Shown piece after piece: positions 1,316-1,338 of a stretch of DNA of 64,000 nt (the first letter of the stretch is position 1; each line of letters opens with the position of its first letter). Below the pieces are notes generated by a model. It saw nothing but the letters and a program-made list of their open reading frames with translations. It made no database searches and was not told where the DNA came from. Source of the DNA: Escherichia coli (GTDB lineage Bacteria > Pseudomonadota > Gammaproteobacteria > Enterobacterales > Enterobacteriaceae); assembly GCF_003018255.1 (NCBI RefSeq), contig NZ_CP027440.1; one strand, written 5' to 3'. The translations under genes and the position numbers were made by a program.

Positions 1316-1338
1316 GCACCTTTATACCTGTTATACCA
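1316..1338. promoter_or_regulatory. Putative NanR operator (GGTATA repeats) in the nanC-fimB intergenic region
   Basis: Reverse complement reads GGTATAACAGGTATAAAGGT, i.e. GGTATA-ACA-GGTATA-AA-GGT, matching the known NanR repeat operator. It lies about 425 bp upstream of nanC and about 1 kb upstream of fimB. Confidence 0.5.

Follow-up and report, generated by a model that had tools for sequence, protein, structure and literature searches.

The spacer between nanC and fimB in Escherichia coli, which occupies positions 900–2350 of the 64-kb stretch of DNA analysed here (hereafter the window; gene names follow the RefSeq annotation), contains a tandem GGTATA repeat resembling the target of NanR. 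The questions raised by this locus are whether the repeat corresponds to the operator known as O_NR in K-12 and, if so, how a single site could serve two divergent genes. It is considered very likely (with a probability of roughly 0.93) that the element at 1315–1337 is O_NR, and that it participates in repression of nanC and activation of fimB in the manner proposed below. Direct observation covers the sequence of the element, its non-randomness and conservation, its identity to K-12 and to two other operators, and the place that it occupies together with its companion sites; that NanR binds, represses nanCMS and activates fimB is taken from the literature and from data obtained with K-12. The operator has already been characterised in K-12, and is in that sense real but ordinary; the circuit was established there some twenty years ago, and its intact presence in the window strain indicates conservation only. 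The site is of interest in that it would couple host sialic acid, a signal of inflammation, both to sugar uptake (nanCMS) and to a lowered pro-inflammatory fimbrial switch (fimB), and in that it bears on how regulators bound approximately 470–760 bp upstream can activate the fimB promoter.

Sequence of the operator and comparison with K-12

The element reads GGTATAACAGGTATAAAGGTGCA on the minus strand (1337 to 1315), which is the strand that encodes nanC, and comprises two perfect GGTATA hexamers followed by a degenerate third repeat, GGTGCA. It therefore contains the two direct GGTATA repeats, 2–3 nt apart, that define a Nan box site. The first-pass annotation, which had reported a NanR-type GGTATA motif at 1316–1338, was correct as to the motif but was displaced by one base (the plus strand of 1316–1338 reads gcacctttatacctgttatacca), gave no strand and did not distinguish the degenerate third repeat. 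The 64-kb window contains a single, mismatch-free copy of the pattern GGTATANNNGGTATANNGGT, whereas 100 dinucleotide-preserving shuffles contained none. Allowing two to three mismatches reduces the tandem pattern to chance frequency, and a lone GGTATA hexamer shows no significant enrichment (23 copies in the window, with 17.4 expected). Since single hexamers are not enriched and the exact tandem is absent from the shuffles, the signal is carried by the tandem arrangement.

Three NanR-controlled loci of K-12 MG1655 (nanC–fimB, nanA and nanX) were taken for comparison. The window operator is identical to the K-12 nanC–fimB site at all 23 positions and occupies the homologous location, the identity extending over at least 90 bp around the operator with the exception of two bases at 1312–1313. 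Also shared with K-12 are the O_NC1, O_NC2 and O_SA1 sites, the GATC beside the operator and the distance to fimB (about −755), and the differences from the K-12 spacer consist of substitutions and a few 1-bp indels, located mostly between O_NC1 and O_NC2 and in O_SA2. O_NR is reportedly 'region 1' of the K-12 nanC (yjhA)–fimB spacer.

The K-12 nanA and nanX (yjhB) operators both read GGTATAACAGGTATAAAGGTATA, which shares 20 of 23 bases with the window site. Relative to the nanA operator of nanATEK–yhcH, the first 20 bases, the ACA and AA spacers and the upstream TGATCT are unchanged, whereas the third repeat is GGTGCA rather than the last GGTATA of the perfect (GGTATA)3 array, the operator lies 415 bp from the ATG at nanC as opposed to 35 bp at nanA, the upstream promoter DNA is identical at only 29 of 63 positions, and the nanC site additionally serves the divergent fimB gene. 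The (GGTATA)3 operator of nanA is a NanR target that has been characterised structurally, and the nanC–fimB operator would, by analogy, be expected to bind NanR dimers cooperatively. The nanX operator of nanXY has the same core and a comparable setting (412 bp from its ATG, against 415 bp at nanC), but its third repeat is perfect and it is not accompanied by a NagC site sequence, the positions equivalent to O_NC1 being different. The nanXY operon is missing from many strains, and is carried by approximately 15% of isolates. Since the same TGATCT precedes all three K-12 operators, a Dam GATC abuts each of them; NanR is described in the literature as binding no more than 5 bp from a GATC at nanA, nanC and yjhB, and the GATC at 1339–1342 falls within 5 bp of the window operator.

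Binding experiments with defined repeats have shown that NanR dimers bind cooperatively, that one repeat is bound poorly whereas two are enough for cooperative binding in the nanomolar range, and that binding is sensitive to the spacing between repeats (Horne et al.). Agreement of the window element with the published footprint is suggested by the sequence identity to K-12 together with secondary statements in the literature. A full-text literature search for GGTATAACAGGTATA returned no paper, and no nanC operator sequence was found in the Horne 2021 supplements.

Arrangement of the nanC–fimB spacer

Table 1. Coordinates of features in and around the nanC–fimB spacer (window numbering)
Feature	Position	Strand	Remarks
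nanC CDS	183–899	−	Sialic acid outer-membrane channel; first gene of nanCMS
NanR operator O_NR	1315–1337	−	GGTATA-ACA-GGTATA-AA-GGTGCA; two perfect Nan boxes and a degenerate third
Dam site GATC beside the NanR operator	1339–1342		One base from the first box; inside the TGATCTGGTATA junction
−10-like hexamer TATGGA of the putative nanC promoter	1356–1361	−	From ungapped alignment with nanX (TGTGGA) and nanA (TATGGG)
NagC operator O_NC1 (fimB1)	1377–1399	+	TGCAATTCGTGTCACAAAATATG; exact match to 'fimB1' of FITBAR Table 1
Putative CRP-like site, TGTGA-N6-TTGCA	Overlaps O_NC1 (1377–1399)	−	
Dam site GATC next to O_NC1	1402–1405		
Weak IHF-consensus matches	1494–1508		One mismatch each; midpoint of O_NC1 and O_NC2; AT-rich, low significance
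NagC operator O_NC2 (fimB2)	1589–1611	+	CATAATTCTCATCATGAAATATG; identical to the entries in FITBAR Tables 1 and 2
SlyA operator O_SA2	1887–1898	+	CTAGGGATCTAA in the window strain
SlyA operator O_SA1	1902–1913	+	TTAGCATGATAA; anchor for fimB +1
fimB promoter TTGTTA-17-TATATA	2046–2081	+	+1 at about 2081; hexamers read from the sequence
fimB CDS	2351–2953	+	Type 1 fimbrial switch recombinase

The spacer measures 1451 bp, in agreement with the 1.45 kb given in the first-pass annotation, and the features located within it are collected in Table 1. The fimB transcription start was positioned by means of the SlyA operator O_SA1, which lies at −179 to −168 in K-12 (McVicker et al.) and falls where the alignment with K-12 has no gaps, thereby placing +1 at approximately 2081. 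The hexamers TTGTTA and TATATA, separated by 17 bp, precede this position and provide an internal check on the assignment. The NanR element accordingly spans −766 to −744 in K-12 numbering, approximately 750 bp from the start, and O_NC2 spans −492 to −470, both of which fit the published positions of the fimB distal region, where O_NR is located "around 760 ... bp upstream" of fimB. Both published NagC operator sequences are present, each matching at 23 of 23 bases, with their centres 212 bp apart; the known sites fimB1 and fimB2 listed by Oberto derive from El Qaidi and Plumbridge (2008) and from a personal communication by Plumbridge. Alignment with the experimentally mapped operators, which had been put forward as the check on the motif, was thus tested and gave agreement in every checkable respect, namely the O_NR distance, O_NC1, O_NC2, O_SA1 and the GATC sites. 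With documented sites for NanR, NagC (two), SlyA (two) and H-NS, the AT-rich spacer is indeed regulatory, as first supposed, and not empty.

The two 23-bp NagC sites flank an AT-rich segment, as they do in the NagC two-operator looping systems (nagE–nagB, chb, glmU and fimB), although this likeness belongs to the neighbouring NagC component as opposed to the NanR site. Within the segment, the IHF consensus WATCAANNNNTTR gives matches with one mismatch, in AT-rich DNA, at 1467–1479 and 1494–1508. An IHF site is said to be located midway between the NagC sites.

Two further observations concern the fimB-proximal part of the spacer. In the window strain a C to T substitution in O_SA2 (CTAGGGATCTAA, where K-12 and eight other strains have CTAGGGACCTAA) creates an additional Dam GATC at 1892–1895. 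A 131-aa open reading frame on the minus strand (1696–2091), which shares sequence with both the SlyA sites and the fimB promoter and is intact in the window strain and two others, is unlikely to be a gene, since stop codons or frameshifts break it in K-12, O157:H7 and others.

On the nanC side, 415 bp separate the operator from the ATG. Upstream of the operator, an ungapped alignment shows 48 of 63 bp to be identical to the DNA upstream of the nanX operator, and nanC, nanX and nanA have a common layout in which a TGTGA-containing CRP-like site, a −10-like element, TGATCT and the boxes follow one another. The stretches compared were window 1315–1400 (minus strand) and 4562–4651 of locus L003 (K-12 nanX upstream DNA). 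Since this module is common to nanX and nanA, and since Horne et al. place the operator within the promoter, on the downstream side of the polymerase site, we infer that the nanC promoter lies at about 1350–1395, with a transcript start estimated near 1348 (1348–1349) and a leader of approximately 450 nt; the CRP-like site would then overlap O_NC1. The operator is therefore probably not remote with respect to nanC, long-range control probably applying to fimB only. The description of the motif as lying deep in the intergenic region is accordingly misleading for nanC, at whose promoter the operator appears to be situated.

The nanC gene is reportedly controlled by NanR, NagC, cAMP-CRP, OmpR and CpxR, which would fit a promoter at this location. 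The CRP-like site lies at approximately −35 relative to the −10-like hexamer, a spacing at odds with the standard positions of both class I and class II sites, so that the promoter assignment stays provisional. A consensus promoter and terminator scan of 880–2360 yielded fewer promoter-like sites than expected by chance and was uninformative, having missed both the fimB promoter and the putative nanC promoter, and an Rfam search of 850–2400 (E ≤ 1) detected no RNA family in the nanC leader or spacer. On the evidence of their sequences, the nanC and nanX promoter–operator modules are probably paralogous, cassette-like units; beyond the module, the two leaders share only one 28-bp blastn match (E = 5e-4).

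Regulation of nanC and fimB

In the proposed mechanism, NanR dimers would bind the tandem GGTATA boxes cooperatively when sialic acid is absent. Towards nanC, the operator would immediately follow a weak promoter that is probably CRP-dependent, such that bound NanR would repress nanCMS, and N-acetylneuraminate (Neu5Ac) would induce the operon by weakening the interaction between NanR and DNA. Towards fimB, NanR at about −755 and NagC at O_NC1 and O_NC2 would raise expression; sialic acid would remove NanR directly and NagC via GlcNAc-6-P, and the loss of both would lower the level of FimB and thereby reduce off-to-on switching of type 1 fimbriae. Besides the exact nanC promoter and start, what we infer in this scheme is the route by which activation reaches fimB.

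The published data accord with the outline of this mechanism. The nanCMS operon belongs to the NanR sialoregulon, having an operator upstream and being co-regulated by NanR and induced by Neu5Ac, and solution studies indicate that Neu5Ac weakens the NanR–DNA interaction (Horne et al.). Expression of fimB in K-12 is NanR-dependent and sensitive to Neu5Ac, and the specialist papers on K-12 describe NanR and NagC as activators of fimB. Additionally, genomic SELEX placed NanR peaks both upstream of nanATEK and in the K-12 nanC/fimB spacer. The signs are reversed in one secondary source, according to which NanR activates nanCM and represses fimB; the assignment of NanR as repressor of nanC and activator of fimB is supported by the specialist papers, and these have been followed here. 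The earlier proposal that NanR links sialic acid to nanC and to a distant fimB is thus upheld by the literature as to the link, and as to long range for fimB only, and sialic acid control of type 1 fimbriation via NanR is borne out by the reported activation of fimB together with the K-12-identical site.

An alternative, which is considered rather unlikely, is that the site functions only as a repressor operator close to the nanC promoter, the effect on fimB being an indirect consequence of nanC promoter activity, supercoiling, Dam methylation or redistribution of H-NS. The authors of the fimB studies themselves regard the mechanism of activation as not known, and perhaps involving altered DNA structure; H-NS covers fimB DNA from about −500 to +150 (McVicker et al.), and according to a review NanR and NagC prevent repression of fimB by Dam methylation. 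The separation of some 750 bp between operator and fimB start also favours an indirect effect, and the location of the operator inside the module held in common with nanX and nanA would be consistent with repression as its ancestral role. Conversely, DNA lying beyond O_NR towards nanC can reportedly be dispensed with, and moving the sites nearer to fimB is said to give more activation, both of which speak against dependence on nanC transcription. The specialist literature, moreover, has NanR activating through O_NR itself, independently of SlyA. A dual-purpose O_NR, repressing nanC at close range and activating fimB from a distance, is retained as the preferred reading.

The degenerate third repeat suggests a different qualification to this reading, in that the site may represent a distinct class of NanR operator that binds two dimers firmly and a third weakly, keeps NanR in the presence of Neu5Ac, and has a mainly architectural role. 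Among the three K-12 loci, GGTGCA replaces GGTATA at the nanC site only, and its first five bases are invariant in the 10 strains aligned below. In genomic SELEX with added Neu5Ac the nanC/fimB spacer was the sole site at which NanR was retained, and an oligonucleotide with two GGTATA repeats (KD of 25 nM) formed only two complexes (Horne et al.). However, nanC is induced by Neu5Ac via NanR in the same manner as the other operons, the weakening of NanR–DNA binding by Neu5Ac in solution argues against retention, and the SELEX result is a single in vitro observation that its authors do not link to the third repeat. A separate class of operator is thus doubtful, and the third repeat may alter the stoichiometry of NanR relative to that at the nanA operator. 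The broader picture, in which the GGTGCA variant holds NanR despite sialic acid and NanR serves as an architectural anti-silencing factor for fimB, is regarded as correspondingly speculative and improbable. As a separate matter, the promoter–operator–leader units of nanC and nanX look like duplicated cassettes.

Conservation in E. coli and other genera

Variation in the spacer was examined in an alignment of 10 sequences, comprising the window and K-12 together with eight further E. coli strains that span the range of identity. Operator positions 1316–1337, including GGTGC of the third repeat, are invariant, position 1315 varies in one strain and position 1343 varies in O157:H7; O_NC1 and O_NC2 are also invariant, whereas the DNA between them (1450–1575) has 6–12 variable columns per 25 bp. 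The operators thus form invariant islands within a variable spacer. The most polymorphic parts of the spacer are 1450–1575 and 1825–1875, where small indels occur and as many as 12–15 columns per 25 bp are variable, and the nanC leader (900–1300), the operators and the fimB promoter region (1975–2150) are nearly invariant. Of 5426 complete E. coli genomes, 5071 (approximately 93%) contained a match, at a coverage of at least 80%, to a 40-bp query around the operator. The median was two places per genome; the second place probably corresponds to the nanA operator, and a third, in K-12, to nanX. The longer stretch 880–2360 (1481 bp) was found in 5020 of the same 5426 genomes and is 100% identical to two RefSeq chromosomes.

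The notion that the GGTATA tandem is a functionless chance feature of an AT-rich spacer, to which the lack of significant enrichment of single hexamers and the chance frequency of mismatched tandems might lend some credence, is refuted by the absence of the exact 20-base pattern from all 100 shuffles, by the occurrence of the same 20 bases at nanA and nanX, by the invariance of the operator across diverse E. coli while nearby spacer DNA varies, and by the NanR SELEX peaks within the spacer.

A degenerate-pattern scan of one genome per species gave at least 120 matches, most of which are chance occurrences in unrelated phyla. Among the matches listed, the exact 20-mer core is present in at least 16 copies, 15 of them at nanR–nanA in E. 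coli, Citrobacter, Enterobacter, Kluyvera, Pseudocitrobacter, Rahnella and Cedecea, and one at a nanC/fimB-type locus on an E. coli-like contig. At locus L061 the core match is at the edge of the locus, and only nanR is visible beside it. The presence of the exact 20-mer at nanR–nanA in other genera marks it as a conserved NanR recognition element. In the six non-Escherichia genera (loci L019, L023, L031, L050, L056, L073, L091, L098, L109, L120, L124, L126 and L131), the nanR–nanA copies of the 20-mer GGTATAACAGGTATAAAGGT have GGTATA, GGTATG or GGTACA as the third repeat, and an adjacent GATC is found in only some of these copies.

The contig with the nanC-type NanR operator, 3.3 kb long and labelled as an uncultured Bacteroides sp. 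MAG (L015; CAUHML010000277.1), encodes a FimB 99.5% identical to that of the window together with a FimE-like paralogue; it is an E. coli contig that has been mis-binned into a Bacteroides MAG. Finally, in E. coli ET151 (L008; NZ_CP100996.1) an IS5-family element is inserted between O_NC2 and the fimB promoter, from approximately position 1240 of the L008 locus onward (equivalent to approximately 1720 in the window), and the DNA equivalent to the window from that point, including the SlyA sites, was not found in the aligned stretch. As a result of the insertion, the NanR and NagC operators either lie at a greater distance from fimB or have been disconnected from it.
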